Positions 1-63,315 of a stretch of 64,000 nt of DNA are shown here, one piece after another (the stretch's first letter is position 1; every line of letters starts with the position of its first letter). The position numbers and the translations under genes were made by a program. The stretch covers positions 25,142,427 through 25,206,426 of the forward strand of contig JAHRHZ010000034.1 of NCBI GenBank assembly GCA_024137785.1, read 5' to 3'. The notes under the pieces were generated by a model that was not told the origin of the DNA, did no database searches, and saw only the letters and a program-made list of their open reading frames with translations. Source of the DNA: Ginglymostoma cirratum. Lineage: Eukaryota.

Positions 1-821
1 GGAACAGAATGGAAATAATTGCCAGCAGGTCAAGGACCTAGGAGTGGGAATTTGTATTAATTGAAAGGTTGTGTACCAGAATATTTCGAGAAGATTTGAA
101 TTCAGTTGAAAGGAGGAAAGTTTTCTCCAGTTGTGTCTGAGGTGTCTGCCAGCTTTGCAGTATCTACCATTTAGCATCTGGATCCTTCTGAACATATTGT
201 GAGGTTATTGATCCTTCTCCACATAGAGCTTCTCTCCCGACACAGCACTCTTCCATTTGCAGGGAGTCTGGACATATGAACAAAAAAAATTATACAGCCC
301 AAAAGGCAAGAAGAAAGTAAAGTAAACAAGGGAAAGCAAAGGAAGACAATAGCTCATTTTCCAATGGTAAGGTAACCACCGAAGCTGTGCAGATTGAAGT
401 TAAAGGGGTTGGGACCGTGCAGAAACCTCAATGCAACTGATTCCATGGGAATGGCCCTGGAAATTGAAGATACCAATGGGCAGTTCCCCTCAGTTTGGAA
501 CCTTCCAGAAAAGTCCCTCAAATTTAGAGAACTCAAAGGGTTTTAACTCACTCCCACTTAGTATTTACCCTGGAAAGGTTAGAGAATTAAGAGCCATGTT
601 GGAGTCCTGGGTAACGATTGAACTAAGCCTTGTATGCACAAAACTGTTTTCCCCCTCCCTCACCCTCTCAACCTCATGGCCTAGACCACTGACAACTTCC
701 AACTGAACTCCCCCTCCAACCCTCAAATCTTGTTGTATCTGATCCCAGTCCTACCTGAAGAAGCAGGGGCCTCAGTTTAATGTCTGATCTAAACAATTGT
801 GCCTAAAGTGATGCTGACGTA

Positions 822-1505
822 CATAGAATCATAGATACACAGAACAGTACGGCACAGGAGCAGGCCCGATGGCTCACCTTGTCTGCCCCAGTCATGATGC
901 CATTCTAAACTAATCCTATCTGTCTGCATGTGGTCCGCAACCCTCCGTTCCCACCCTGTTCATGTATTGCTATCATCTCTGCTCCTACCACCTCCCCTAG
1001 CAACACATTCTAACCACTTACTGCCCTCTGTGTTAAAAACATGCCTCACAAGACTCCTTCAAACGTTCCCCCTCTCACTTTAAACCTATGTTCCTAGTAC
1101 TTGACATTTCCACCCTGGAAAAGGACTCCAACTGTCCATCCTATCCATACCTCTTATGATTTTATAAGCTTTGATCAAGTCACCCCTCAGCCTCAATGCT
1201 CTAGCAAAAGCAATCCAAGTTTGTTCAATATAGATAGTAAGAACTGCCGATGCCAAGTTTGTTCAAGCTCTCTTTATAGCTAATATAGTCCAATCCAGGC
1301 AACATCCTGGTAAACCTCTTTTGCACCCTCTCCAAAGCCCCCACATCCTTCCTGTAGTGTGGCCACCAGAACTGCACACAATACTCCAAACGTGACCTTA
1401 CCAAAGTCTTTTACAGCTGTAGCATAACTCGCCAACTTTTATATTTAGTGCCCCAAACAATGCCATATTCTTTCTTTACCACCTGACCCACTTGTGTTAC
1501 CACTT
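822..1505 (-). mobile_element. CR1 LINE 3' fragment
   Basis: Begins with reverse-complemented (catagaat)n-type tail and is homologous to the CR1 copies at 21088 and 26430 (e.g. ggcaacatcctggtaaacctcttttgcaccctctcc, agaactgcacacaatactcc). Confidence 0.75.
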
Positions 1506-2589
1506 TAAATCATAGATTCCCTACAGTGTGAAAACAGGCCATTAAGTCTCAATGCAAACTAATTAAATTCACAAGCAGCTGACTGGGAGCTGGTGGCCAC
1601 AGTGGAACCACAATAAGGTTTACGAGGAAATCTTGATAGGATCTGCACTTGGGCTGATCAGCGATGAATTGAGATTGATAGGGATGATGCAGTGAACTGA
1701 ACCATTGGAACAAAAAAAACAGGCTAGTTCATTTGTCTTTGTGTGATATTGGTTTGAAGGACTCATAATTAGTGAGAACAGTGGCACAATATCATACCCT
1801 TCTTTGACATACAGCTACGCCGCAGAATTTATAAAACAGGAAAGCAATTTAAACCATCTCCAAGTTTGGCAGGAATAAAAGTAAATGCTGCTGGTTGTGA
1901 CAGTGGATGCATATTCCCCAGATTCAGTAAAATGCCATGTGCATCAGTGCTGTGTGGGTTGCTGTGAAGCCAATGGGAATCTGGAATACTTTAATAGAGG
2001 TTACTGTTGGGCAAACAGTAATGACTTTCCCTAATGAGTTAGAGTGGGTCAGTGCCCAATGGGAAGGTGGAAGACCTTCTTGGTAAGTAGAAAGCTTTCT
2101 GCTGAGGGGCCAAAGTGTTCCACAAGCTGTCACCAGGAAGTCAGCAGTTTGCTTTGCTCTGCTCTCCACACCTTTCCTTCCCATTAGACCCACCAGGAAC
2201 CCCCTTCTCCGGCAAGCTCCGGCAAGTGGGTGACCCTTCGCTACTCGATTTGCCTCTGCAGCCCTATCCTGTTGCTGGTTTTATTAGGCAAAAGTTGGGA
2301 CAGTGGCTTTCAAATAAGGCCCAGAAGTTAATATATTCCAGGCCTGTCAGTGCTTCTTCCTCACCCAATCTCATCTGTAGTTAAAATCTAACCCTCGGAA
2401 TTGACACTAGCTGCAGGGAGCTCGTTACAGGAATGTAACTAAAGGCTAACTTCACAGATTCTGAACAGTCAGTGAGGAACCACACTGGGAAGGGCTAAGT
2501 GGGTCAAGCTGGGTCTACAATACTGTCGTGTTGATTCTTCATTTCGGAGTGGATTTACTGTCATAGGTACCTTTGGAGATACTTTCTAA

Positions 2590-2680
2590 TCAATCTGTTT
2601 AGAAATGTTCTTACACACCTCTTGGAGCAGGTAGGACTTGAACCTGGATCACCTGGCTCAGAAGTAGGGACACTACTTGT
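2590..2680 (-). mobile_element. Short tRNA-derived SINE head
   Basis: ggacttgaacc is a reverse B-box (GGTTCAAGTCC). A near-identical unit (ggagcaggtaggacttgaacctgga) recurs at about 63950-64000. Confidence 0.55.
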
Positions 2681-3689
2681 GTCAGAAGAGCCCTATGTAT
2701 ATCATTCAACAACACTGATTATAATGTTAAACATCTGTAGACTTTATATTGCCTCCGGGGACTGTATCGGTTTCTCCAGCTTTGTATGTGTAATTACAAT
2801 GGATTGGTAGAAACTCCAAATAAATATGCAAATAGATTATACAGCGCTGATATGACAGTGGATCAGGAGGAACTCACCAAGGAAACTCCAGGTTCAAATC
2901 ACCTAGCTACACAAATCCAATGTCCTTGAATTATTCCTGTCATATGCTGCTGAAGGACTTTACTTAGGCTATTAAATTAAAATCCATTCTTTCAGAAGGT
3001 GATATTAACCATGTTTCCTCTTGAATGCTGTCTTTCAGTGTGGTAAATGTAGAGTATTCAACAGCAATAGTGGAGAAAATCATTAAAAATCTATCCATGT
3101 AACTGGAATGAAAAGACTTCAAAAGTCCTAACAAGGTTAAGTACCATGCAAATCTTTCAAGGTTAAATGGTGCTGTTTTTTCAACAGACTTGAAGATTAG
3201 ACAAATGTACAGTAGAGAAGCGTTTATTATTACAGACGTGCAAAAAACCAGAGGCTACATTCTGTAGCTCATCAGCAATCATTTCTTCATTGTAATTACA
3301 CTTTCCAGTCATTAATAATTACTGTTTTTTCTTGTGATATGAGAACTGATTGAGGAGATAAAATACATCACATCTCCTTATTCAACTTTCTTGTCCATGT
3401 TCCTCTTTGGAACTTAATCTTTCTTGCATTTGGCTGGGACAGGTTCATTTAACAGCTCCATAAGCAAAATTTTGGCATTGCATTGCAAAACTAAAGTGAA
3501 TTCTTTTAGTTTTTGCCCTCAGAATCTCATTGTTACTTAGTCAACTGAGTGTCAAACCTGTGTGGATATAGTTATTATACAGAATCACATCATTGGATAA
3601 GGCATAACAGCAGAATGTGTAAGTAGCATGTCCACTCCCAGATTGCCAGCCTTTCATTATTGCTGCAAGCTAATTTGTATCAGGTACTA

Positions 3690-8764: not shown

Positions 8765-9118
8765 GGGGAACACAATGCCCTAGTGGTATTATTGCTAGAC
8801 TATTAATCCACAAACTCAGCTAATTTTCTGGGGACTGGGGTTCAAATCCCACCATGGCAGGTGGTAGAATTTGAATGTGATAAAGAATCTGGAATTAAGG
8901 GGCTAATGATGACTGTGAAACCATTGCCGATTGTAAAACCCATCTAGATTGCTAATCTTCTTTTGGGAAGGAAATCTGGCATCCTTACCCAGTCTGGCCT
9001 AAAGGTGATGCCAGACCTGCAGCACAGTGGTTGATTCTCAACTGCCATTTGGGCAGTCAGGGATTGGCAGTAGCCTAGCCTAGCCAGAGATGCCCACATC
9101 CAATGAGTGAACAAGAAG
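8765..9118 (+). mobile_element. tRNA-derived SINE (short form) sharing its 3' tail with the 61540-63315 LINE
   Basis: A-box-like tgccctagtgg, B-box ggttcaaatcc, body tctggaattaag...gaaggaaatct, tail gccagagatgcccacatccaatgagtgaa. Other copies at 16445-16765 (-), 30160-30510 (-), 34345-34665 (+), 36822-37168 (+). Confidence 0.8.
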
Positions 9119-9189
9119 AAGCGTGGAGGAGAAGAGTGATATCTGATGCTGTTCTTGGACAGTCCCAGGAATTTCCCACAGAAATCCGG

Positions 9190-16444: not shown

Positions 16445-16765
16445 GTTTTATTAATTCATTCACGGGAGAGGGTGTCACTGGCTAGTTCAGCATTTGTTAC
16501 CCATCCCTGGTTGCCCAGAGAACAGTGTGGGGTCTGAAGTCACATTAGGCCAGACCAGGTAAGAATGGTAGTCTCCTTCACTGAACAACATTAGTGAACC
16601 AGATGGATTTTTCTGACAATCAGCAGTGGAATCATGGTCATCATTAGAGACTCAATTCCAGATTTTTTTGAATTCAAATTTTGCCATCTGCTGTGTTGGG
16701 ATTTGAAACTTGGTCTCTGGAAAATTAGCTGGGCCTCTGGATTAACATGCCACAGGCCAGCGTAC
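16445..16765 (-). mobile_element. tRNA-derived SINE (family of 8765-9118)
   Basis: Reverse tail ttcattcacgggagagggtgtcactggctag and reverse B-box ggatttgaaac. Confidence 0.75.
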
Positions 16766-21087: not shown

Positions 21088-21700
21088 AGTCATAGAATCA
21101 TAGAGCTTTACAGCTCGGAAACAGACCTTTCGGCTCAACTTGTCCAGGCTGACCAGATATCGTAAATTAATCTAGTCCCATTTGCTAGCATTTGGCCCAT
21201 ATCCCTCCAAACCTTTCCTATTCATACACCCACCCAGATGCCGTTTAATCTTGTGATTGTACCAGCCTCCTTCACTTCCTCTGGCAGCTCATTCCATACA
21301 CGCACCATCCTCTGCATGAAAAAATTGCCCCTTCGGTCCCCTTTTAAACCTTACAGAGGGGGCATAGATAAGGTGAATGGCAAAGATCTTTTCCCTAGGG
21401 TAGGGGTGACCAAAACTAGGGGCCATAGGTTTAAAATGACACGGGAAAGATTTAAAGGGACGTGAGGGGCAAATTTTCCACACAGAGGATGGTACATACA
21501 CGAAATGAGCTGCCAGAGGAAGTGGTAGATGCTGGTACAGTTACGACATTTCAAAGACATTTGGGCAGGTTCTCGAGTAGGAAAGGTTTAGAGGGATATG
21601 GGCCAAACGCAGGCGAATGGGACTAATTTAGTTTGGGAGACCTGATTGGCATTGATGATTTGGACCATAGGGCCTGTTTCTGTGCTGTGTGATTTTATTA
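21088..21700. mobile_element. Two CR1 3' ends in inverted (tails-out) arrangement
   Basis: 21088-21347 is a minus-strand CR1 3' end and about 21350-21700 is a plus-strand one. Shared motifs aatgagctgccagaggaagtg and gagggatatgggccaaa occur in opposite orientations. Confidence 0.85.
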
Positions 21701-26429: not shown

Positions 26430-27385
26430 TCGGTGCTGGGTCCCCTGTTGTTTGTCATTTATATGAACAAGTTGAATGGGAATGTAGGAGACCGTGGTTA
26501 GTAAGTTTGCAGATGACACCAAAATTGATGGCATAGTGGACAATGAAGAAGGTTGTCTAACATTACAAAGGGATTGTGATCAATTGAGCCAATGGTCTGA
26601 GGAGTGTCAGATAAAGTTTAATTTGGATAAATACAAGATATTGCATTTTGATAAAGCGAACAAGGGCAGGACTTGTACAGCTAATAGTAGGGCCCTGAGT
26701 AGTGTTGTCAAGCAGAAAGGCCCAGAGGTTCAGGTATATAGTTTGTTGAAAGTTGCATCACAGGCAGACAGGGTGGTTAGGAAGGAATTTTGCACACTTA
26801 CCTTTATTGCTCAGACTATTGAGTATAGGAGTTGGGACGTCATGTTGAGGTGGTGCAGGACATTGGAGTATTGTGTACAGTTCTGATCGCCCTCTAATAG
26901 GTAGGATATTATTTAAATGGAGAGGGGTCGGAAAAGATTTACCAGGATGTTGCTGGGACTAGAAGGTTTGCATCATAGGGAGAGGCTGGATAGTCTGGGA
27001 CATTTTTCACTGGAACATAGGAGGTTGAGGGGTGGCCTTATAGACCTTTATAAAAACATGAACAGGCACAGATAAGGTGAACAGCCAAGGTCTTTTCCCG
27101 AGGGTGAGGAAGTTCAAAACTAGGGATTAAGACTAAATTTTAAAGGGACCTGATGGACAGCTTTTTCACAGAGGGTGGTTTGTATGTGGAATGAGCTGCC
27201 AGAGGGAGTGGTAAATGCACGTACACTTACAACATTTACAAGACATTTGGACAGGTACATGAATAGGAAAGATTGAAAGGGGTATGGGCCAAATGTAGGC
27301 AAGTGGGACTAGTTTAGTTTGGGAAAGTTGGTCAGCATGGATGAGACAGACCAAACGGTCTGTTTCCATGTTATATGACTCTATG
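26430..27385 (+). mobile_element. CR1 LINE, RT C-terminus plus 3' UTR
   Basis: ORF VSKFADDTKIDGIVDNEEGCLTLQRDCDQLSQW...KFNLDKYKILHF...LEYCVQF; tail atgactctatg. Confidence 0.92.
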
Positions 27386-27574
27386 TATGTTTATTCTGGT
27401 GTGTGTTTATGAATTTGATCCTTTAAGGAACACTTTTAGAGAGTCAGGTACTCTTTATCCTTATATCCCTCACTCTTGAAAGAACACACACTTCTCACTA
27501 AGCAAAGACCCACGACCATGTCTCTACCCCTTCAGTATGTGCTTTCAATTGCTTGTTGGGAATGGACAGGAACG

Positions 27575-29100
27575 GACTGATTGATTTATTGTCATGTGTA
27601 CCGAAATACAGTGAAAAGCTTTGTTTACGAGCAGTACCAGCAGATCATAGTAAGCAAAGGACGTACAGATCAAAAAGACTTAGATAGAGGCATACAGGTT
27701 ACATTGCACAGGGCATGATCTAGATAAGGTCAATGTTAGCAAGATCAGTGTTATTTGAGGCTAGAGAGTCCATTCGTTAGTCTGATAGCAGCCCGGAAGA
27801 AGCTGTTCCTGAACCTGCTGGTACGTGTGTTCACGTTTCTGTATCTTCTGCCTGCCAGAAGAGGTTGTAGGAGGTCATTAGCAGGGTGCGATGGGTCTTT
27901 GATGATGTTGGCCACTTTTCAGCAGCAGCGAGCTGTGTAAATGGAGTCTATGGATGGCAGATTGGCTTCTGTGATGGCCTGGGCTGTACACACCACTTTC
28001 GTAGTTTCTTACGGTCCTGGGCAGAGCAGTTGCCATACCAGGCCGTTATGCACCCAGACAGTATGCTTTCAATGGTGCATCTGTAGAAGTTGGTGAGGGA
28101 CCTTATGGATATGCCAAATTTCCTGAGCTACCTGAGGAAGAAGGGGCGTTGACTCCCACATGTACGTGGGAAGCCCAGGACGGGTTGTCAGTAACGTCAC
28201 TCTGAGGAACTTGATGCCCTTCACCCTCTCAACCTCAGTTCCATTGATGTAGATGGGGCTGTATTCGCCTCCTTTTTTTCTGAAGTCAATTATCAGTTAT
28301 TTAGTTTTGCCGATGTTGAGAGACAGATTGTTTTTATTGCGCCATGACACCAAGCCCTCTATCTCCCTTCTGTAGTTTGACTCGTTGCTGTTAGATATCC
28401 GTCCCAGTACGATGGTGTTGTCACCGAATTTGTAGATGGTGTTGAGAATTTGGCAACACAGTCATGGGTGTACAGGGAGTGCGGTAGGGGGCTGAGGATG
28501 CATCTTGAGGTGCTCCAGTGTTGAGTGTTACTGTGGAGGAGGTGCAGTTACCTATTCTCACTGATTGCGGCCTATGGGCCAGAAAGCTGAGGATCCAGCT
28601 CCAGAGGGCAGAGCCGAGACCAAGGTCATGCAGTTTTGAGATCAGTCCGGAGGGGAGAATGGTGTTGAAGGCAGAATTGTCGTCAAAGAACAGGAGTTTG
28701 ATGTAGGTGTTTTTGATCTCTAGATGTTTCAGGGATGAGTGCAGGGCTGGGGATATGGCATCCGCTGTAGACCTATTACAACGGTAGGCAAATTGTAGGG
28801 AATCGAGGCAGGCTGGGAAAGTGGAGTTGATGTGGGCCGTGACCAACCTCTTGAAGCATTTCATATTATTGTTTATTGAGGTCAGAGCCACTGGGCAGTA
28901 GTCGTTAAGGCACATTGCATGTGCTTTCTTAGATACGGGGATGATGGTGGTCTTCTTAAAGCAGGTGGGGACTTTAGCTTGTAGGAGGGAGAGGTTGTAG
29001 ATGTCAGTGAATACCTCCGCTAGCTGGTCTGCACAGGATCTGAGTGCTTGGCTGGGGACATCGTCCAGGCCCGTCACTTTCCTTGGGTTGAGTCCCGGGA
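27575..29100 (-). mobile_element. Rex1/Babar LINE, RT region plus 3' UTR (degenerate)
   Basis: [82 protein letters not shown]; tail cttttcactgtatttcggtacacatgacaataaatc. Confidence 0.92.
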
Positions 29101-30159
29101 AGACCAGTCTGTTGATTCAGCACTTGCTGATGTCCATCTTTTGTAACCGAAGTCAGAGACTTCATTTTCATAGACGATGGTGCTCTTTCTAAGTGTGAAG
29201 GATCACAGATATGAGCCCATATTGTAACACATCACCATGCGATAGATGACTTGTATTGCATTTTCAATGTTTCATAATAATGGACAGGTTTTTGACTTCC
29301 TAGTAGCACAGAAATTGGACAGGTAAAATTTTACTTCATATTAAATCAGTTTAAGTTGCAGTATGAAAAAGCTGTAGTAATCCCAGCCCTTTGAGATTGA
29401 TGCAGAACTTCGGACTTCCTTTGGCTTGACTGGGCTGTTTGACAATACAATGCATCATTGAAATGCCACTGGTTGGGAAGCACTTCTTTGGTTGAAGGAA
29501 TTGAGAGGAACTGAAAGGGAAATAAATGATTACAACTAGATTAAAAGACCCCAGAAAAACAGATTCAAAGAATCGTTCATCATTGGAGTCCATTCAGCCC
29601 ACATGTCCATTCCCCTCAGCTATTGTTTCTTTTCCACATATATAAGTCAACTCCTTTTGAAAGTTATCACTGAATCTGTTTTCAGGCAGTGCATTCCAAA
29701 TTGTAGCTGCTCGCTTGGTGGCAGAAGTTCTGTTTTTTTTCCACAGCTGTTGCTTTCAATCATTGTCTGATGGAAGGGCCTGGCACCAGGAAGATGATAG
29801 CGGTGCTTTGGGGCAGGGGCTTTCACTGAAGGCCACCCTCTGTCCTTGCTGCTGAATCTCTACCTCTCCCCGGCCTGTGCCATATGATATGCACCCAGCC
29901 AGTGCTACGCACCATCACCCATCTACTCCTGGGTCTTGTGCGTGATTCTAGACCTCTGGTATGGGTACTGCTAGCAGTGGCTGATGCCAAGAAATGAAGT
30001 GTTGCCAACCCCTGCCTGATTGGGCGACAGATCATTAGCAAGTGGGAGACTGTGTCCCTGGGGTCCTTGAACCTGGGCCTGCCACTACCCGCTATAATGT
30101 GGGCCTTCCTAAAAAGAGGTGACATGGGGCTCTCACCAGCCTCCCTTAAACACCACCTA

Positions 30160-30510
30160 ATATTTTTGTTAATTAATTCACAGAATGTGGGCTTTGCTGA
30201 TGAGGCTGACATTTATTGTTACCCCTAACTGCCCAGAGGGCAGATGAGAATTAATCACGTTGCTGTGAGTTTGGAGTCACATGTCAGTCAGATCAGGTAT
30301 CACTAGTGGTTGCCTTCCCCAAAGGATATTAGGGAACCAGAGGAGATTCTGCCCACTAGCAATTGGTAAAGGTTTCATGGTCATCGTTAGACTGTTAATT
30401 CCTGATTTTTAAAATTAAATTCCACTATGTGTTATAGCAGGATTTGAACCTAGGTCCCCACGACGTTACCTGGGTCTCTTGGTTTCTGTTTAACTAAGCT
30501 ATTGCCTCCC
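30160..30510 (-). mobile_element. tRNA-derived SINE (family of 8765-9118)
   Basis: Reverse tail and reverse B-box ggatttgaacc at about 30440. Confidence 0.72.
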
Positions 30511-34344: not shown

Positions 34345-34665
34345 ACGAGGGGTAATATCACCAGAGGAGGCCAATGTTCTGGGTTCATGGGTTCAAATCA
34401 CACCATGGTAGACGACGAAGTTTGAATTCAATAAAATCTGGAGTAAGAAGCTGGTTTAATGATGACCATGTCACTGCTGTTGATTGATATAAAAACCTAC
34501 CCTGTTCACTAATGGCCTTTCAGGGAAGGAAATCTTTCATCTTTATCCAGTGTGGCCTACAGCTGATTCCAAACCCACAGCGATGTGATTCACTCTTAAC
34601 TGACCTCTGGGCGAGAAATGCTGGCCTGGACTGTGATGCCTATGTCCCATGAAGGGATTTCTTTT
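34345..34665 (+). mobile_element. tRNA-derived SINE (family of 8765-9118)
   Basis: ggttcaaatcacaccatggtag...tctggagtaagaag...aaatgctggcctgg...tcccatgaag. Confidence 0.75.
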
Positions 34666-36821: not shown

Positions 36822-37168
36822 GGGGAGGATGTGGTGTCGTTGTAGTGTCACCGGACTAGAAATCCCGAACTCCAGGCTAATGCTCGGGACAATTGGTTCA
36901 AATCCCACAATGGCAGTTGGCAAAATTTCAATTCAATAAAATCTGGAATAAAGAGCTGGCCTAATAGCGACTATGTAATCACTGTTGTAAATACTCATCT
37001 AGTTCACAAATTTCCTTTGGGGAAAGAATTCTTCCATCATTCTCTGATCCAGCCACATGTGACACACAGCAATGTGGACAATTCTTAAACTGCTGTCTGG
37101 GCAATTAGGGATGAGCTATAAATGCTGGCCTGGCCAACAATACCCACATTCCACAAACATTTTTTTAA
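36822..37168 (+). mobile_element. tRNA-derived SINE (family of 8765-9118)
   Basis: ggttcaaatcccacaatggcag...gggcaattagggatgagctataaatgctggcctggcc...cccacattcc. Confidence 0.8.
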
Positions 37169-38769: not shown

Positions 38770-41160
38770 GTCCTTTGATTCGAGGATTACACCTAGTCAT
38801 GAGTTTACTAAATAGACTACATAGGCCAATTCTCGATCAGCAGATCTTTGGAAATGTGGGCCAAGATTTACCACAAGACATTGGGATCTAGAGTGCAGGA
38901 GTTGCTCTGTGACACCACTCTGCCCTATCTGTGACTCCAAACGTGAGGTAGTTTGATGAACAAGTCACCATTTTGAAAGATTGTTGGCGTGCTCTTTCCC
39001 GTCATTAATGGCAACGCTGCCACCATCAAGGAGAGCTGCAGAGAATCATTGAAGTGTTTTCTTCATTTCCCCACTGGAACACAGTCCATTTGAGAGTTCA
39101 AAATGGAGGACTCAGCGGGGCAAGAAACCTTTTGACTAGGCAGACTCACTAATCAGTCCATCATTGTTGATTTTACAAGAGTTTTGCCTGAATGGAGATG
39201 GATTCGAGGAGGACCAAGCATTAGATCCTTCCATTGAATCTGGAGAATGTGGTGATAATATTGCTGGTGGCATTTCACCAGCACTCTTATCGCTCACTGA
39301 TATGCAATCTAGTTTTCACGGCAATACTTGAGTGTGATGATGACAACTGACAATATAATATGACTTTTGTTGACTTGCTGAAGTCATTGTTGTCAAACAA
39401 CACACTGCAGTAGTTTATCAAAGTACATCTAGTCCACTGTGGCATTTCATTGTCCCTGGTTGAGTTTTGAGAGAGGCAAGACAGAGGAAGTGCTCACCAT
39501 ATTCCCAAGTTGAATATTTGACTAACCAGGAGTGTGTTGATGTGAGTTTTCTGTTGGTAACATTGTGTGGGCTGCAGATACCTGAGAACACCACCACCCA
39601 CAAGTTGCCCTCCAAGCCACTCATCATCCTGACTTGGAAACATACAGCCATTCCTTCTCTGTCGCTGAGTCAAAGTCCTGGAATTCCCTCCCCAAAGGCA
39701 TTGTGGGTCAGCCCACAGCACACGGACAGCAGCGGTTCAAGAAGGCAGCTCACTAATACCTTCTCAGGGCAATTAGGGATGGTCAATAAATGCTGGCCCA
39801 GCCAGTAACACACCTGTTACATGAGAAATGAAGAAAAAATTCAAACCAGGCCGAGTTTATTGCCCAGAGAATTGAAGAGATTGAGGTTGGCTTGAAACTC
39901 TGCTGTGGATGAGCAAGGACGCAACAGTGATCTGCAAACTGTAGGTCACGTTGTCATTGCTGGTCAGCTTACTTTTTCACACAGAGGTGACTGAGGTTAA
40001 AACATTTTCTACCTTGCTGACATCTAGCCAGTGGACAGTCGATCATTGTGGAAGTGAATAGTTGGTGACAAGTAGGTTGTAAGTGTACTTGGTCAGATGT
40101 TTTAGTCATATTGATGAACACAGTAAAGAGTTCCTGGCGGTGTTCTCAATATTTCTGTCGGATTTGTCTAACAACAAAAGCCAGAGGTTCCTCTGGAATA
40201 TCTGAAGCCACACTACATCTCTGGCAGGATTTCCTCAGTCGCAGGAAGGAGGTGATTCAGGAGAATGTGTGTCAGGATTTTCCCTGGTGTGGAGAAGAGG
40301 GAAATAATTTGATTGTTTCCACAGAATGATTTATCTTCCTTCTTGAAGGAAGTTGTTATTGTTGCGTTTCTGAAGTAGGGAGGGGAGTTCTTCTTCGTCC
40401 GAAATCTGTGGTAGTAAGGCGTAGAATCTGAATGTGAGCAGAAGTTCATTACCTTTGAAGACCTTAGCTTGAATACATCAGGGCTGCAGGCTTTGTTGTT
40501 CTTCATCTGGTTAATTGCTTATTGCAGTTTTCCCACTGATGGTGATTCAGTAACAGATTCAGTGCAAGGTAATGGGGCTAGATAGCCTGGTTGAAGAGGT
40601 GTTGAAAGTGTTATTTCCAGTGTTGAAGAAGGCCATTGCCACCTACAGGAAGAGAACTACTATCCTGCTCAAAGATGGTCCTGATGGCTACAAAAAAACT
40701 TTGCCATGATCATCAGCAAATTCTTGGATTTGGGGCATTCTCTTTACACCACATGCGCTCCTTTATCTCTCTGGTCAAAGCCTGCACATGACTTTGCTCA
40801 ATGTAAAGGACTTTGGGAACCTATCATGGTTCGCATGACCTTGATGGGTTGGTGGTCTGATTTTACAGACATATGAGACCCCGATAATCACCTTGCCAAT
40901 GTATTTCTCCCGTCTACGCCACAATGTTTGCTTGTTTTTGGGCAAAGGACTGTGCGCCAGCCCCTGACTCTGCTGCCAAGGGTGGTCCTACCAGAAACTA
41001 GGGGCTCACAACAACATCAGTCGGGTGCACAAGTCTCTCCGGCATCTCAAAGTGACAATTCATGGAGGGGTGGGTGGAGGAATCACCTCCTTCCTACTGT
41101 ATTCAAATTTCAGTTTGAATTAAGGGCTCAACTCCTGGACGGGGAGAAAAACCCACAGTC
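38770..41160 (-). mobile_element. Highly degenerate RTE-clade LINE
   Basis: Minus ORF ...FRNATITTSFKKEDKSFCGNNQIISLFSTPGKILTHILLNHLL..EEILPEM(*CGF) matches the RTE consensus FRDATIVTLFKKGD...CGNYRGISLLS..GKILARILLNRL...LPE.QCGF. Borders approximate. Confidence 0.65.
39570..39840 (+). mobile_element. 3' end of the 61540-family LINE nested in the RTE
   Basis: catcctgacttggaaac...gcggttcaagaaggcagctcac...gggcaattagggatggtcaataaatgctggcccagccag. Confidence 0.85.
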
Positions 41161-43984: not shown

Positions 43985-46010
43985 TAGCAAAACTCAAGAC
44001 CTAGGAGCAGGAATAGGCCAATCAGCTGTTCAAGTATGTCCTGTCATTCTATAATTGATCTGCCACAGGCCACAACTCCTCTTTAATGCCATTTCTTCAT
44101 AGCCCTCAACTCCTTGATATCTCAAATATCTATCTACCTCCTCTATTTATATTTGCAGTGATCTGGGATCCACAACTCTCTGGGTAGAGAATTCCAGACA
44201 TTCATTACCCTCTGAGAGAAAAAAATTCCTTCACAAGAGTGGCACGGTAGCTCAGTGGGTTCGATTCCACCCTCAGGCCTGTGTCTGTGTGGGTTTCCTC
44301 CGGGTGCTCCGGTATCCTCCCACAGTCCAAAGATGTGCAGGCTAGGTGGATTGGCCATGCTAAATTGCCCGTAGTGCTCAGGAATATTTAGGTTAGGTGG
44401 GTTATACATGGAAAATGTCGGAGAGTGGGTAGGGGGTGGGATGCTGTTCGGTGGGGCGGTGTGGACTTGTTGGGCCGAAAGGCCTGTTTCCACACTGCAG
44501 GGATTCAATGATCTGTGATTTCAGTATTAAACGAGTGTTTTTGAATACGGGGACAATGTTCCTTTGTTCAAGATTCCCCTACCAGTGGAAACATCTTCTC
44601 AACACCAACCCTCTGAAGCTCCTCAGATTCTTATATGTTTCAATAAGATTTCCTATCATTCTTCTAAACTTTAATGAATAAAGACCTAGCCTCCTTAGCC
44701 ATTCTTGATAAGTCAAACCCTTCATCCTATGAATTAACCTAGTAAATCTCTTTTGAACTGCCTCCAATACCAATACTTCCCTATTTTTAAAAGCAGGGAG
44801 CAGAACTGTACACAGTAGTCCAGGTGCGACTTCAAAATCACCCTGTACAGTTGTAACAAACCTTCCATACTTTTAAGCTCCAACGTCCTAGCAATAAAGG
44901 CCAAAGTTCAATTTACCTTCTTAATTACTTGCTGCAACTGCACACTAACCTTTTTGTTTCATTTGCAAGAACACCCAGATTCCTCTGTCACTCTGACCTT
45001 CCACAAAGTCATTAATGTACATCATAAATAATTAAGGCTCTAGGACCGATCGTTGCAGGACCCCACTGCTTATGTCTTTTCAAACTGAAAAAAAACCCGT
45101 TAGTCCTGACTCTGTATCTTTTGTGTGTTGACCAATCCTCAATTCGTGCAAATACATTACCCCCAATATTAGGAGCTCCTATCAGATACAGTAACCTTTT
45201 AATGTGGTACCTTACCGAATGTCTTCTAGAAATTCAAATAAACAATTTCCTTTTCACAAAAACATGCTGACTGTGTTTGATTGTGTTAAGCTTTTCTAAG
45301 TGTCTTGCAACTTCTCCCTTAGTAATGGACTTGTAGAATTTTCCTAATGACACATATTAAACTAACTGGACAATAGTTCTCTGTCTCCCTCACTTCTTGA
45401 ACAGAGTGCCACATTTGCAGTTTTCCAATCTGGTGGAACCCCTCCCATCCCGGAATCCAGTGAGTTCTGGAATATTTTGATCAATGTCTCCACCATCTCT
45501 ACAGACACTTACATTAAAACTCTTGGATGAGGCCATCAGGTCCAGGTGTCTTGTCTGTCCTCAGTCCCATTAGTTTGTCAACTACTTTGTTCCTCTTGAT
45601 AGGGATTGTTATAATATCTCTTCTCCCATTAGTATCTTGTTTATCGGTTATCTTTGGGATATCTGTCATGTCTTTCACGACGATGGCTGATGTAAAATAT
45701 TAGTTTAAAATATTTGCCATTTCCCTATTTTCCTTTATCAATTCCACAGTTGCATCCCTCAAGGATCCTGCACTCACTTTAGCTACTCCTTTTATATACC
45801 ATTAGAAGCTCTTGGCTGTTTACTTTTATATTTCTTGGTGATTTATTTTCATGTTCAATTTTTTTCTCTTTTTCTTAGCTTTTTAGTCTGTTGACAATTC
45901 GTAAAAATGGTCCGATCCTCTGGCCTACCATTGGTTTTCATAGCTTTGTCTGTCTTAGTTTTTGGTTTGATTGTTAACCAAGGGTGGTTCATCCACCTCA
46001 TTGAGTCCTT
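43985..46010 (-). mobile_element. CR1 LINE, about 1.8 kb degenerate ORF2 3' part
   Basis: Minus ORF LEAVQKRFTRLIHRMKGLTYQEWLRRLGLYSLKFRRMIGNLIETYK; ggatgaggccatcaggtccagg is reverse PGPDG.HP. Confidence 0.88.
44238..44512 (+). mobile_element. HE1 V-SINE (internally deleted) nested in CR1
   Basis: V-domain gggtttcctccgggtgctccggt.tcctcccacagtccaaagatgtgcagg.taggtggattggccatgctaaattgccc and tail ttgggccgaaaggcctgtttccacactg. Confidence 0.88.
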
Positions 46011-46744: not shown

Positions 46745-47060
46745 ACAAAAAAAAATTCACACTTAAGATGTAAGTGTTACTGACTAGGCCAGCATCTACT
46801 ATCCACCATTAGTTTCCCTTGAGCAAGTGGCAGTGAGCTGCCTACAACTGAGTAACTTGCGAGGCCATTTCAGAGGGCATTTCAGAATCATCCACAGATG
46901 CGTGGAGCTGGAGTCAAATGTAGGCCAGATTAGATGAAGTTAGAGATTTCCCGTCCTGAAAGATTTGACTGAATCAGATGGGCTTTTGCAATAGTCATTG
47001 TTAACGAGACTAACAGTTTATACCAGTGTTATTAATTGAATTTAAGTTCAATGAAACATG
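46745..47060 (-). mobile_element. Long form of the tRNA-derived SINE (LINE-5' part plus LINE-3' part)
   Basis: Minus strand: SINE body ...gccctctgaaatggcctcgcaagttactcagttg then directly the LINE tail ggcagctcactgccacttgctcaaggg...gatgctggcctagtcag. Confidence 0.72.
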
Positions 47061-47156: not shown

Positions 47157-49000
47157 TGACTGCTTCAGTATGTGAGGAGTTGCAAATGGTCCTGAACATT
47201 CTGTACTCACTGGCAAACATCCCCACTTCTGACCTTATGATGGAGGGAAGGTCATTGACATAGCAGCTGAAGATGGTTGGGCCCGGGACACTACCCTGAG
47301 GAACTCCTGGAGAGATGTCCTGGAGCTGAGATGACTGACCGCCAACAACGACAACCATCTTCATATGTGTCAAGTATGACCCTAACCACCGGAGAGTTTG
47401 CCCGCGATGCCCGTTGATTCCAGTTCTGCTCGGGCTCCTTGATGCCACACTCAGTCGAATGCAGCTTTGATGTCAGGGGCTGTCACTCTCACCTCACCTC
47501 TAGAATTCAGCTCTCCTGTCCATGTTTGAACCGAGGCTGCAATGAGGTCAGGAGCTGAGGTCAGGCGGAACCCAAACTGGGTGTCACTGAGCAGGTTATT
47601 GCTGAGTAGATGCTGCTTGATAGCACTGTTTTTATCACTTTACTGGTGATCGACAGTACATTGACGGGGCAATAATTGGCTGGGTTGGATTTGTCCTGCT
47701 TTTTATATACAGGACATACTTGGGCAATATTCCACATTGTTGGATAGATACCAGTGTTGTAACTGTACTGGAACAGCTTGGCTAGGGGAGTGACAGGTTC
47801 TGGAGCACAAGTCTTCAGTCCTCTTGGTGGAATGTTATCAGGGTGTATAGCCTTTGCAGTACCCCACAGTGCCTCGTGGATGCCCAGTCTTGAGTTGCTA
47901 GATTTGTGCGAAGTCTGTCCCATTTAGCACGGTGATAGTGCCACACAACACGATGGAGGTTGTTCTCAATGTGAAGGCAGGACTTTGTCTCCACAAGGAC
48001 TGTGCGATGGTCACACTTACCGATATTGTCATAGACAGATGCAACTGCAGCTGGCAGATTTGGAAGGATGGGGTCAAGTGTGCTTTACCCTCTTGTTGGT
48101 TCTCTCACCACCTGCTGCAGACTCAGTCGAACAGCTGCATCCTTTAGGACGTAACCAGCTCGATCAGTAGTACTGCTGCCAAGCCATTAGAATCATTAGA
48201 ATCCCCCACCCAAAGGACTGTGCTTCCTCTAAGTGTTGTTCAACATGGAGGAGTACTGATTCATTAGCTGAGGGAGGATGGTATGTGGTAATCAGCAGGA
48301 TGTTTCCTTCCCCATGTTTAACCTGAAGCCATGAGACTTCATGGGATCTGAAGTCAATGTTGAGGACTCCTAGAGCAACACCCTCCCAACTGTATACCAC
48401 TGCGCTGCCACCTCTGCTCGGTCTGCCCTGCCGGTGGGACAGGACCTATCCAGGGATGGTGATGGCGCTGTCTGGGACATTGTCTGTAAGGTATGATTCT
48501 GAGAGTATGACTATGTCAGGCTATTGCTTGACTAGTCCCAATTTTGGCACTAGGCCCCAAATGTTAGTGAGGAGGACTTTGCAGGGTTGACAGAGCTGTT
48601 TCTGCCGTTGTCTTTTCTGGTGCCTAGGTTGATGCCAGATAATTCGTCTGGTTTCATTTCTTTGAGACTTTGTAGTGATTGGTACAACTGAGTGGCTTCC
48701 TGGACAACTTCAGAGGGCAATTGAGAGTCAACTGCATTGCTGTGGTCTGCAGACACATGTAGGCCAGACCAGGTGAGGATGGCTGTTTTCTTCCCTGAAG
48801 GACATTAGTGAACCAGGTGGGTTTTTCTGAGAATTGACAATGATTTCATGGTCATCAGTAGATTCTTAATTCCAGAATTTTTTTTATTATCAAATTCATA
48901 TCCTACCACCTGCCTTGGCAGGATTCAAACCTGGGCCCCCAGAATGTTACCTGGGTCTCTGGATTAAAAGTCTAGCGGTAACACCACTTGGCCATCGCCT
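47157..49000 (-). mobile_element. CR1/L2-group LINE with tRNA-derived 5' head, APE endonuclease and RT (internally deleted, 3'-truncated)
   Basis: A-box TGGCCAAGTGG (48984-48994), B-box GGTTTGAATCC (48921-48931). APE N-terminus KVLLTNIWGLVPKLG..PDIVILSESYLTDNVPDSAITIPG..RGGSAVVYSWEG..LLITTYHPPS. RT motifs KQDKSNPANYCP and GVPQGSVPGPTIFSCYVNDLP. Confidence 0.88.
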
Positions 49001-61539: not shown

Positions 61540-63315
61540 ATCTTCAATTCAAATGAAAGAGGAGGAGGAGGCTCCACAAATGTCCCCATCCTCAATGATG
61601 GAAGAGCCCAGCACATAGTACAAAAAATAAGGCTGAAGCTTTTGCTACAATCTTCAGCCAGAAGTGCCAAGTCGATGATCTTACTCGGCCTCCTCCAGTA
61701 GTCCCCAGCAGTTTCGATACCAGTCTTCAGCCAATTCGATTCACCCCACATAATATCAAGAAAAGGTTGGAGGCACTGAATACTGCAAAGACTATGGGCC
61801 CTAACAACATTCTGGCACTAGTACTGAAGACTTGTGCTCCAGAACTTGCTGCTCCCTTAGCCAAGCTCTTCCAATAGAGTTACAACACTGGTGTCTACAA
61901 TGTGGCAAATTGCCCAAGTATGCCCTGTACACAAAAAGCAGAACAAGTCCAACCCGGCCAATTACCGCCCCATCAGTCTACTCTCGATCATCAGTAAAGT
62001 GATTGAAGGTGTCATCAACAGCGCTATCAAGCAGCACCTGCTCAGCAATAACCTGCTCAGTGATGCCCATTTGGGTTCCACCAGGGCCACTCAGCTCCTG
62101 ACCTCATTACAGCCTCGGTTCAAACGTGGACAAAAGAGCTGAATTCCAGAAGTGAGGTGAGAATGACAGCCCTTGATTTCAAGGCTACATTTGACCGAGT
62201 GTGGCATCAAGGAGCCCAAGCAAAACTGGAATCAGTGGGTATCGGAGGCAAACTCTTTAATGGTTTGAGTCATACCTGACACATAGGAAAATGGCCGTGG
62301 TTGTTGGAAGTCAGTGTTCTCAGCTCCAGGACATCTCTGCAGGAGTTCCTCAGGGTAGTGTCCTCGGCCGAACCATCTTCAGCTGCTTCATCAATGACCT
62401 TCCCTCCATCATAAGGTCAGAAGTGGGGATGTTCACCAATGATTACAAAATGTTCAGCACCGTTTGCGACTCCTCAGGCACTGAAGCAGTCCATGTTCCC
62501 ATGCAACAAGATCCAAACAAAATCCAGGCTTGGGCTGACAAATGGCAAGTAACATTCGTGCCACACAAATGCCAGGCTATGACCATCACCAGTTGCCCCT
62601 TGACATTCAATGATGTTACCATCACTGAATCCTCCACTGTCAACATCCTGGGAGTTATTATTGATCAGAAACTCAACTGGACTCACCCTATAAATGCAAT
62701 GGTTACAAGAGCAGGTCAGAAGCTAGGAATACTGTGGCGAGTAATTCACCTCCTGACGCCTCAAACCATGTCCACCAACTACAAGGCACAAGTCTGGAGT
62801 GTGATGGAATACTCCCCACTTGCCTGGATGAGTGCAGCCCCAGCAACACTCAAGAAGCTTGACACCATCAAGGACAAAGCAGCCGGCTTGATTGGCACCA
62901 CATCCACAAGCATCCACTCTCTCCACCACCGACACTCAGTAGCAGCAGTGTGTACTATCTACAAGATACACTGCAGAAATTCACCAAAGATCCTCAGACA
63001 GCACCTTCCAAACCTACGATTCACTTCCATCTAGAAGGACAACGGCAACGGATATATGGGAACACCACTGTCTTCAAGTTCCCCTCATGCCACTCACCAT
63101 CCTGACTTGGAAATATATCACAGTTCCTTCACTGTCACTGGGTCAAAATCCTGGAATTCCCTCCCTAGTGGCATTGTGGGTCAACCAACAGCAGGTGGAC
63201 TACAACGGTTCAAGAAGGCAGCTCACCACCACCTTCTTAAGGGCATCTAAGGACGGGCAAGAAATGCTGGCCAGCCAGTGATGCCACATTCCATAAAATG
63301 AATTTTTTAAAAAAA
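61540..63315 (+). mobile_element. CR1/L2-group LINE, 5'-truncated ORF2 (RT) with complete 3' end
   Basis: WQIAQVCPVHKKQNKSNPANYRPISLLSIISKVIE; GVPQGSVLGRTIFSCFINDLP; GMFTND (FADD decayed); WADKWQVTFVPHKCQAM; LGVIIDQKLNW; YKAQVWSVMEYSPLAW. Few frameshifts. Tail ends gaattttttaaaaaa. Confidence 0.95.

Follow-up and report, generated by a model that had tools for sequence, protein, structure and literature searches.

A tRNA-like head and a scarcity of T runs make the elasmobranch LINE Zenon a candidate for transcription by Pol III

Introduction

LINEs and SINEs are divided by the RNA that they make, the former giving coding RNA from Pol II and the latter non-coding RNA from Pol III. A locus of Ginglymostoma cirratum raises the question of whether one element may cross this divide. 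The window analysed here is a stretch of 64,000 nt (assembly GCA_024137785.1, contig JAHRHZ010000034.1, forward-strand positions 25,142,427–25,206,426). At 47157–49000 on its minus strand, a tRNA-like head and a SINE body continue into the APE endonuclease of a LINE. A first-pass annotation, made from the letters alone, read this as a LINE family that has no ORF1 and may have captured a Pol III promoter. Here we ask whether the arrangement belongs to a family, which polymerase would transcribe it and how its protein could be made.

Materials and methods

Family copies were collected from the 4.36-Gb genome. In addition to a 221-nt query spanning body and APE, an APE-only query was used to avoid circularity; it gave 5216 candidates, of which 40 were scored and 30 loci were fetched, the window copy being one of these. 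Among the 29 APE-found copies, one is the same insertion as locus L043. A query with the RT C-terminal protein gave 148 scored matches, of which 40 were fetched: the best 20 after the window and 20 selected by long frame or low rank. Box motifs were called against the general A- and B-box consensus. Controls for T-run counts were 60 related LINE ORFs, being those of at least 450 codons among 80 metagenome loci, and same-genome controls from the fragment at 44500–46000 (minus strand) and from a Rex-like fragment; the CR1-like control was too decayed for the ORF test.

Results

Studied copy and its surroundings

The studied copy is a dead copy of the Zenon LINE. It corresponds to family positions 5–1187 and 1733–2453 at 87–88% identity, and all family sequence past 2453 (the 3' 840 nt, including the tail) is gone. 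Most of what the first-pass annotation had described could be read again from the sequence (Table 1). The A-box-like 11-mer lies where it was placed, as does the B-box-like 11-mer, which has one C-to-T change relative to the family; the first APE motif, KVLLTNIWGLVPKLG, begins at 48580 (minus strand), 420 nt from the 5' end at 49000; the SINE body passes into APE with no intervening tail or poly(A); and no in-frame ATG lies ahead of APE in this copy. To this we add an out-of-frame ATG at 48657 (minus strand), the start of a uORF. In the sister LINE copy there are, as had been counted, exactly one T4 run (61640) and a terminal T6 (63303), but the family itself ends in a short A tract and not in this T6. 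Rfam gave a weak tRNA-Sec match to the studied head (48912–48998, 15.4 bits, E 5.9), and ARAGORN at its default score made no tRNA call in the 64-kb window.

Elsewhere in the window lie host-gene exons that encode an F5/8 type C domain (Pfam E 1.1e-14). The gene is presumably neuropilin-like, and the studied copy is probably intronic and antisense to it. From their translated motifs, the decayed repeat fragments of the window are presumably CR1-like, Rex-like, RTE-like and Penelope-like.

Table 1. Features of the studied copy and other elements in the window
Feature	Position	Strand	Basis or remark
tRNA-like head, element 5' end (family ~5–95)	48912..49000	−	Sequence, weak Rfam match, common copy start
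A-box-like motif	48984..48994	−	Sequence
B-box-like motif	48921..48931	−	Sequence and family majority
SINE-shared body, ending at the tail joint of the short SINE (family 295)	48711..48911	−	Family alignment
Body end common to longer SINE forms, then LINE-specific A-rich linker	48658..48710	−	
35-codon uORF from conserved ATG, overlapping first APE motif	48550..48657	−	APE frame is −1 to uORF
APE endonuclease-coding part and linker start, with stops and small deletions	47864..48580	−	
Internal deletion joint, family 1188–1732 absent	47863..47864	−	Studied copy alone
RT-coding part, family 1733–2453	47158..47863	−	Pfam, RVT_1 E 0.00023
Sister LINE copy, 5'-truncated, family 1515–3283	61561..63303	+	90% identical to majority; RVT_1 E 1.7e-08
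Older, more decayed copy, family 1643–2569 and 2983–3292	50551..51747	+	78–81% identical
Separate SINE-like copy, body (family 323) joined to LINE last codons and tail (from about 3196)	46760..46987	−	
Short SINE copy: head, body up to family 290–295, tail	8775..9120	+	
Further short SINE copies	16530–16745, 30234–30479	−	
Further short SINE copies	34370–34609, 36854–37157	+	
Decayed repeat fragments	44500–46000, 28421–29116, 40213–40518, 56010–56589	−	
Decayed repeat fragments	21100–21700, 26488–27400		
Host-gene exons	54414–54836, about 58246–58390	+	F5/8 type C domain

Recurrence of the head–APE junction

A SINE that had inserted by chance beside a truncated LINE would account for the locus, and the one point in favour of this is that the window is rich in both repeats. 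The junction is, however, far from unique. The 221-nt query returned 4815 candidates across the genome, and 40 of the 40 that were scored matched. Of the 29 APE-found copies, 22 extend to family positions 1–30 and 25 at least as far as position 58. Of the RT-found copies, 12 of 40 reach positions 1–6, and locus L148 is probably a thirteenth, across a 2-kb insertion; the others have scattered ends (positions 132–2147) with no alternative common 5' end. One pair of these truncated copies has a common flank near the breakpoints, but the breakpoints differ. The 56 flanks upstream of the head contain nine matching pairs, one of which matches near the start in both members. Copies thus start at one point in flanks that rarely match: the head is the 5' end of the family, and the insertions are independent. 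None of the 29 APE-found and 40 RT-found copies carries a different 5' UTR or an ORF1; there is no room for an ORF1 and no trace of one in these copies or in the majority sequence. In public sequencing runs, contigs cover the whole element in organisms A, B, D and H and bridge the body–APE junction in organisms C, G and H. With every scored junction matching, independent flanks and like consensuses from five species, chance juxtaposition was ruled out and its probability is practically nil.

Insertions flanked by TSDs, which had been proposed as a check, were not found in the form of TSDs of at least 9 nt (0 of 26 copies); TSDs of at least 6 nt were present in 4 of 26, compared with 3% of shuffled pairs, in a set in which one or two members are a SINE head paired with a neighbouring LINE and not true full copies. 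In the CR1 group TSDs are usually short or absent. SINE or sibling LINE insertions were seen in or beside family copies at L063 (4660–5036), at L088 (2243–2706) and in the flank of L073; that in L088 is a full SINE within the LINE copy.

Family sequence and identity

The majority sequence is 3292 nt long and consists of the head (1–95), the body (to about 322), an A-rich linker, the ORF, a 60-nt 3' UTR and a short A tract. The A box (11–21) and B box (73–83) lie at tRNA-like distances from the 5' end, and ARAGORN folds the LINE and SINE majority heads as tRNA-like at a relaxed score only. A single APE-RT frame (297–3230) is open over 977 codons, and natural copies match RVT_1 and Exo_endo_phos_2 in Pfam (the latter with E 0.00018 on a sibling copy). 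At 3.3 kb and with this frame, the element is neither short nor non-coding, as a SINE would be. Over 108 loci, the identity of copies to the majority has a median of 91.4% and a maximum of 94.8%; among the fetched loci no intact copy was found, and the longest N-free open frame has 592 codons. AATAAA is absent from the sense strand of the LINE majority, whereas the SINE has two; at the two SINE sites the LINE copies mostly read AAGAAA (15 of 26) and AATAGA (9 of 26), respectively, which are weak variants of the poly(A) signal. The 3' end is a short templated A tract, that is, a poly(A)-type tail and not a microsatellite. A search for an older subfamily with a 74–80% copy as query returned mostly the main family.

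The closest proteins are invertebrate APE-RTs (amphioxus, sponge and shrimp; 35–42% identical). A look for tRNA heads in invertebrate relatives drew on the 80 metagenome loci, which are distant (22–43% to the query); it gave four relaxed ARAGORN calls and, in one of 60, a B-box motif near the ORF start. The closest metagenome locus, L240 (38%), lacks a B box; it carries 20 T4 runs, and its Met is in frame.

By eye, the family appears to be the elasmobranch Zenon-1 of PMC13343379, judged from the near identity of the first 400 nt and from the length relative to RhiTyp_Zenon-1. That consensus has 3293 nt compared with 3292 here and is alike in its single APE-RT ORF, its lack of ORF1 and its A tail; over the first 400 nt it differs by about four substitutions and in A-run length (PMC13343379). 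The first-pass annotation had assumed that LINEs of the CR1/L2 group normally have an ORF1. This does not hold for Zenon, where absence of ORF1 is the norm: in elasmobranchs, coelacanth and hagfish, Zenon is described without ORF1 and with a poly-A tail (PMC13343379). Of the proposed ORF1-less LINE with a captured head, the family-wide unit of head, body and single APE-RT stands, but both the element and its loss of ORF1 were already published. ORF1-less Zenon being on record, the loss of ORF1 was not coupled to acquisition of the head.

Comparison with other sharks, which had also been proposed, was made by eye on the published shark and ray consensuses (PMC13343379). The tRNA head starts seven of seven elasmobranch Zenon consensuses from five species (RhiTyp_Zenon-1, CarCar_Zenon-1, ScyCan_Zenon-1, HypSab_Zenon-1 and SquAca_Zenon-1 to -3). 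In all seven the A and B boxes are visible, and no T4 run occurs within the first 400 nt. Two hagfish consensuses and one coelacanth consensus start differently and have several T4+ runs. Intact ORF2 is reported for 1 of 1419 RhiTyp_Zenon-1 and 0 of 2313 CarCar_Zenon-1 copies (PMC13343379). The portions of that paper available to us do not mention tRNA, Deu or Pol III in the text, or tRNA in the supplement. To that extent the head, the T purge, the missing start codon and the link to the SINE are unremarked there, and what is new here lies in interpretation and not in sequence. A literature search, whose reach ended short of subscription papers, Repbase and Dfam, gave no report of a tRNA-headed or Pol III LINE.

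T runs

All T-run statistics rest on the majority sequence of copies that are about 9% diverged. Over the whole element this has three T3+ runs and no T4+ run, compared with 48 A3+, 47 C3+ and 40 G3+ runs. The ORF contains two T3+ runs against 11.1 expected from synonymous codon permutation (0 of 5000 permutations were as low, and 1 of 3000 in a repeat run), and TTT has the lowest observed/expected ratio of the 64 trinucleotides. Five-nucleotide windows with four T are absent from the 3292 nt (9.4 expected in the ORF, P 0.001), with no depletion of such windows for A, C or G. Codons ending in TT are never followed by T (0 of 45; 6.0 expected), and the Phe codons are TTC 16 times and TTT once (Fisher P 0.013). 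For the T4 runs to which the first-pass annotation had drawn attention, absence taken alone is not significant (0 versus 1.5 expected, P 0.19; 0 versus 3.0, P 0.036 with a looser null). Against shuffled codons, it is the T3+ runs and the four-T windows that are significantly scarce in the family sequence, and not the T4+ runs.

Among the 60 control ORFs the T3 ratio ranges from 0.75 to 1.23, compared with 0.18 in the family; four-T window ratios are at least 0.76 and each control has 5–49 T4 runs. Two controls have z-scores (−3.5 and −3.6) as low as that of the family (−3.4), but their ratios are 0.75–0.79. Most controls are richer in T (0.22–0.39 versus 0.20). The Rex-like majority from the same genome (T 0.216) has 11 T3+ and two T4+ runs in 1915 nt (P 0.0018). 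Phe makes up 1.7% of the family protein, compared with 2.1–6.5% in full-length relatives and 2.3% in the nearest one. Ten invertebrate-type relatives (P0003, P0043, P0045, P0054, P0061, P0062, P0064, P0072, P0073 and P0079), on contigs of about 3–4 kb, have only 2.1–2.6% Phe.

These counts bear on a rival reading: transcription by Pol II, either from the 5' region of the LINE or by read-through, with the head serving as its promoter or surviving as a relic, and a scarcity of T that reflects composition, RNA stability or silencing. As a rule LINEs are transcribed by Pol II (PMC5786205), and a capped RNA would account for translation from an AUG. General T-poverty of the sense strand (0.20) and the low Phe content of the closest relative also fit, yet the purge is directed at T clusters beyond what codon usage and protein sequence would give, and it is seen neither in the 60 related ORFs nor in the Rex control. 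The LINE majority moreover has no AATAAA, and A and B boxes are kept in all seven published elasmobranch consensuses (PMC13343379). We therefore consider Pol II transcription unlikely. Runs of T4+ are terminators for Pol III in a context-dependent manner, and internal T4–T5 runs are tolerated by some SINEs (PMC4758252), so that Pol III would not strictly demand a purge. Avoidance of T clusters within the ORF is nevertheless the best independent sign that we have of putative read-through by Pol III.

Translation

In the majority sequence no in-frame ATG precedes APE, and the frame has its first Met at codon 171, which already lies within APE. A uORF of 35 codons starts at an ATG at 349 and ends within the first APE motif. 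Of 77 copies, 70 retain this ATG; in 56 it stands 77 nt ahead of the KVL codon, and in 72 it is out of frame. Its place matches that of the Met in the closest protein relative, about 29 residues ahead of the motif. In the published heads, examined by eye, the ATG is kept in six of seven while the upstream linker varies by non-triplets, and the uORF/APE overlap shows silent interspecies changes in both frames (PMC13343379). HypSab_Zenon-1 has the 77-nt ATG spacing of the majority sequence; in SquAca_Zenon-2, a gapped consensus of 2886 nt, the ATG is by eye in frame with the APE-side codons (PMC13343379). No canonical slippery heptamer or hairpin was found beside the putative shift site. The only window with a low fold z-score (481–560, z −3.4; one of 25 windows) lies downstream of the uORF stop; head and body have no notable fold.

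Three ways of making the protein were considered. We lean slightly, and with less than even confidence, towards a start at the conserved ATG after the A-rich linker, followed by a −1 shift before the APE motif. A non-AUG start is possible but a little harder to favour. Translation from in-frame master copies that are hidden by the majority sequence is doubtful.

A division of labour would avoid the difficulty: Pol III would make the RNA that is copied, as for a giant SINE, and the protein would be supplied in trans by the few copies lying within capped Pol II transcripts. This covers the head, the T purge and the absence of a usable start from the Pol III RNA; many copies have private internal deletions, and the window copy sits between host-gene exons. 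For the majority ORF to stay open over 977 codons, however, the spreading copies would have to be under selection; large deletions are private and not amplified as subfamilies, the SINE joint excepted; and a capped read-through RNA would be equally short of an in-frame ATG. We regard this arrangement as improbable.

Alternatively, the head might be a processing signal, with the 5' end set by an RNase P-like cut in a longer transcript from Pol II, in the manner of the R2 and L1Tc ribozymes. Such a signal would yield a sharp common 5' end and uncapped RNA, processed 5' ends have a precedent in L1Tc (PMC3383444), and the head takes a tRNA-like fold at the relaxed ARAGORN score. Its fold energy lies within that of shuffles, however (z −1.2), and the T-run purge and missing poly(A) signal would be left unexplained. 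Processing is thus very improbable.

Relation to the SINE

The 360-nt SINE of this genome (majority of 30 copies) equals LINE positions 2–295 (about 90% identity, counted on the alignment) joined to LINE positions 3221–3292, and so spans the first 295 and last 70 bases of the LINE. The joint of 295 to 3221 is dominant here and in organisms A, B, C, D, G and H; one of about 320 to 3217 occurs in organisms E and F and in some local copies; and one of 323 to 3196 includes the last codons of the LINE (window 46843–46987). These SINE joints were noted in L110 (2603 and 2628), in the window at 46843–46987, and in L062, L128 and L203. At least three joints to one LINE tail suggest repeated exchange between SINE and LINE.

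The SINE is presumably of the SacSINE1 type and its body Deu-like. The Deu label follows the layout, in that the body shared by SINE and LINE fits the description of DeuSINEs in PMC5499810. Elements of the SacSINE1 type with head, Deu body and tail occur in chimaera and coelacanth (PMC5499810). Since no headed Zenon was seen in those two lineages, the SINE looks the older and capture by the LINE the likelier direction. The probable source of the head is the LINE's own SINE, and the probable route a template switch in a forebear of sharks and rays; deletion derivatives that arose secondarily from the headed LINE are also likely to exist. The partner of the chimaera DeuSINE is L2-2_CM, with a tail similarity of 78.6% (PMC5499810), whereas the tail here matches Zenon; galeomorph sharks are reported to lack L2 (PMC13343379). 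No paper found in the literature search treats SacSINE1 and Zenon together. The Zenon-bearing vertebrates (elasmobranchs, coelacanth and hagfish) are those with tRNA-headed DeuSINEs, and bivalve Deu SINEs have likewise been assigned to CR1-Zenon in the literature.

Discussion

The head and the T purge are a real and conserved family-level feature of a catalogued, abundant shark and ray element. From sequence evidence we give a probability of about 0.62 to the reading in which the headed, T-purged 3.3-kb Zenon LINE is transcribed by Pol III from its tRNA-like head; it is the combination of a tRNA-type head with a near absence of T runs that makes a protein-coding yet Pol III-made element likely. 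The A and B boxes of the head would be recognized by TFIIIC; Pol III, finding no terminator along the 3.3 kb, would transcribe all of it and end, as for a SINE, at the first T run of the flank. Priming by the RT would take place in the templated A tract, and the RNA would be uncapped, so that making the protein would require cap-independent entry. In the L1/Alu system Pol III transcripts retrotranspose without ORF1p (PMC2666806), and an ORF1-less Zenon would therefore tolerate a switch of promoter.

If this reading is correct, headed Zenon crosses the divide between LINEs and SINEs, and an abundant vertebrate LINE supplies a natural long Pol III mRNA. Translation of uncapped Pol III RNA, the role of the Deu body and the identity of the LINE that mobilizes shark DeuSINEs become testable questions. 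Repeat annotation will divide headed Zenon elements into a SINE and a LINE.

Known systems share parts of this arrangement. R2 has a single ORF and an RNA thought to lack a cap and to be translated independently of one, its 5' end being set by an HDV-like ribozyme, unlike the tRNA-type head found here. Ruminant BovB is an ORF1-less LINE of the RTE clade whose 5' end reportedly includes tRNA-SINE sequence; we are aware of no claim that Pol III transcribes it or that it is purged of T runs. L1Tc is likewise a single-ORF LINE with an RNA thought to be uncapped and translated independently of a cap, and provides a precedent for uncapped LINE RNA with a proposed IRES; its 5' end arises by HDV-like ribozyme cleavage, whereas the head of Zenon is a candidate Pol III promoter of the tRNA type (PMC3383444). 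DeuSINEs of the SacSINE1 type share with headed Zenon the tRNA head, the conserved body and a LINE-type tail, but are non-coding (PMC5499810). The bipartite SINEs or SIDEs derived from RTE, Vingi and insect Zenon also combine the 5' and 3' ends of a LINE; in these a small-RNA head has been added to a deleted derivative, whereas here the full coding LINE bears the head (PMC5786205, PMC6740152).
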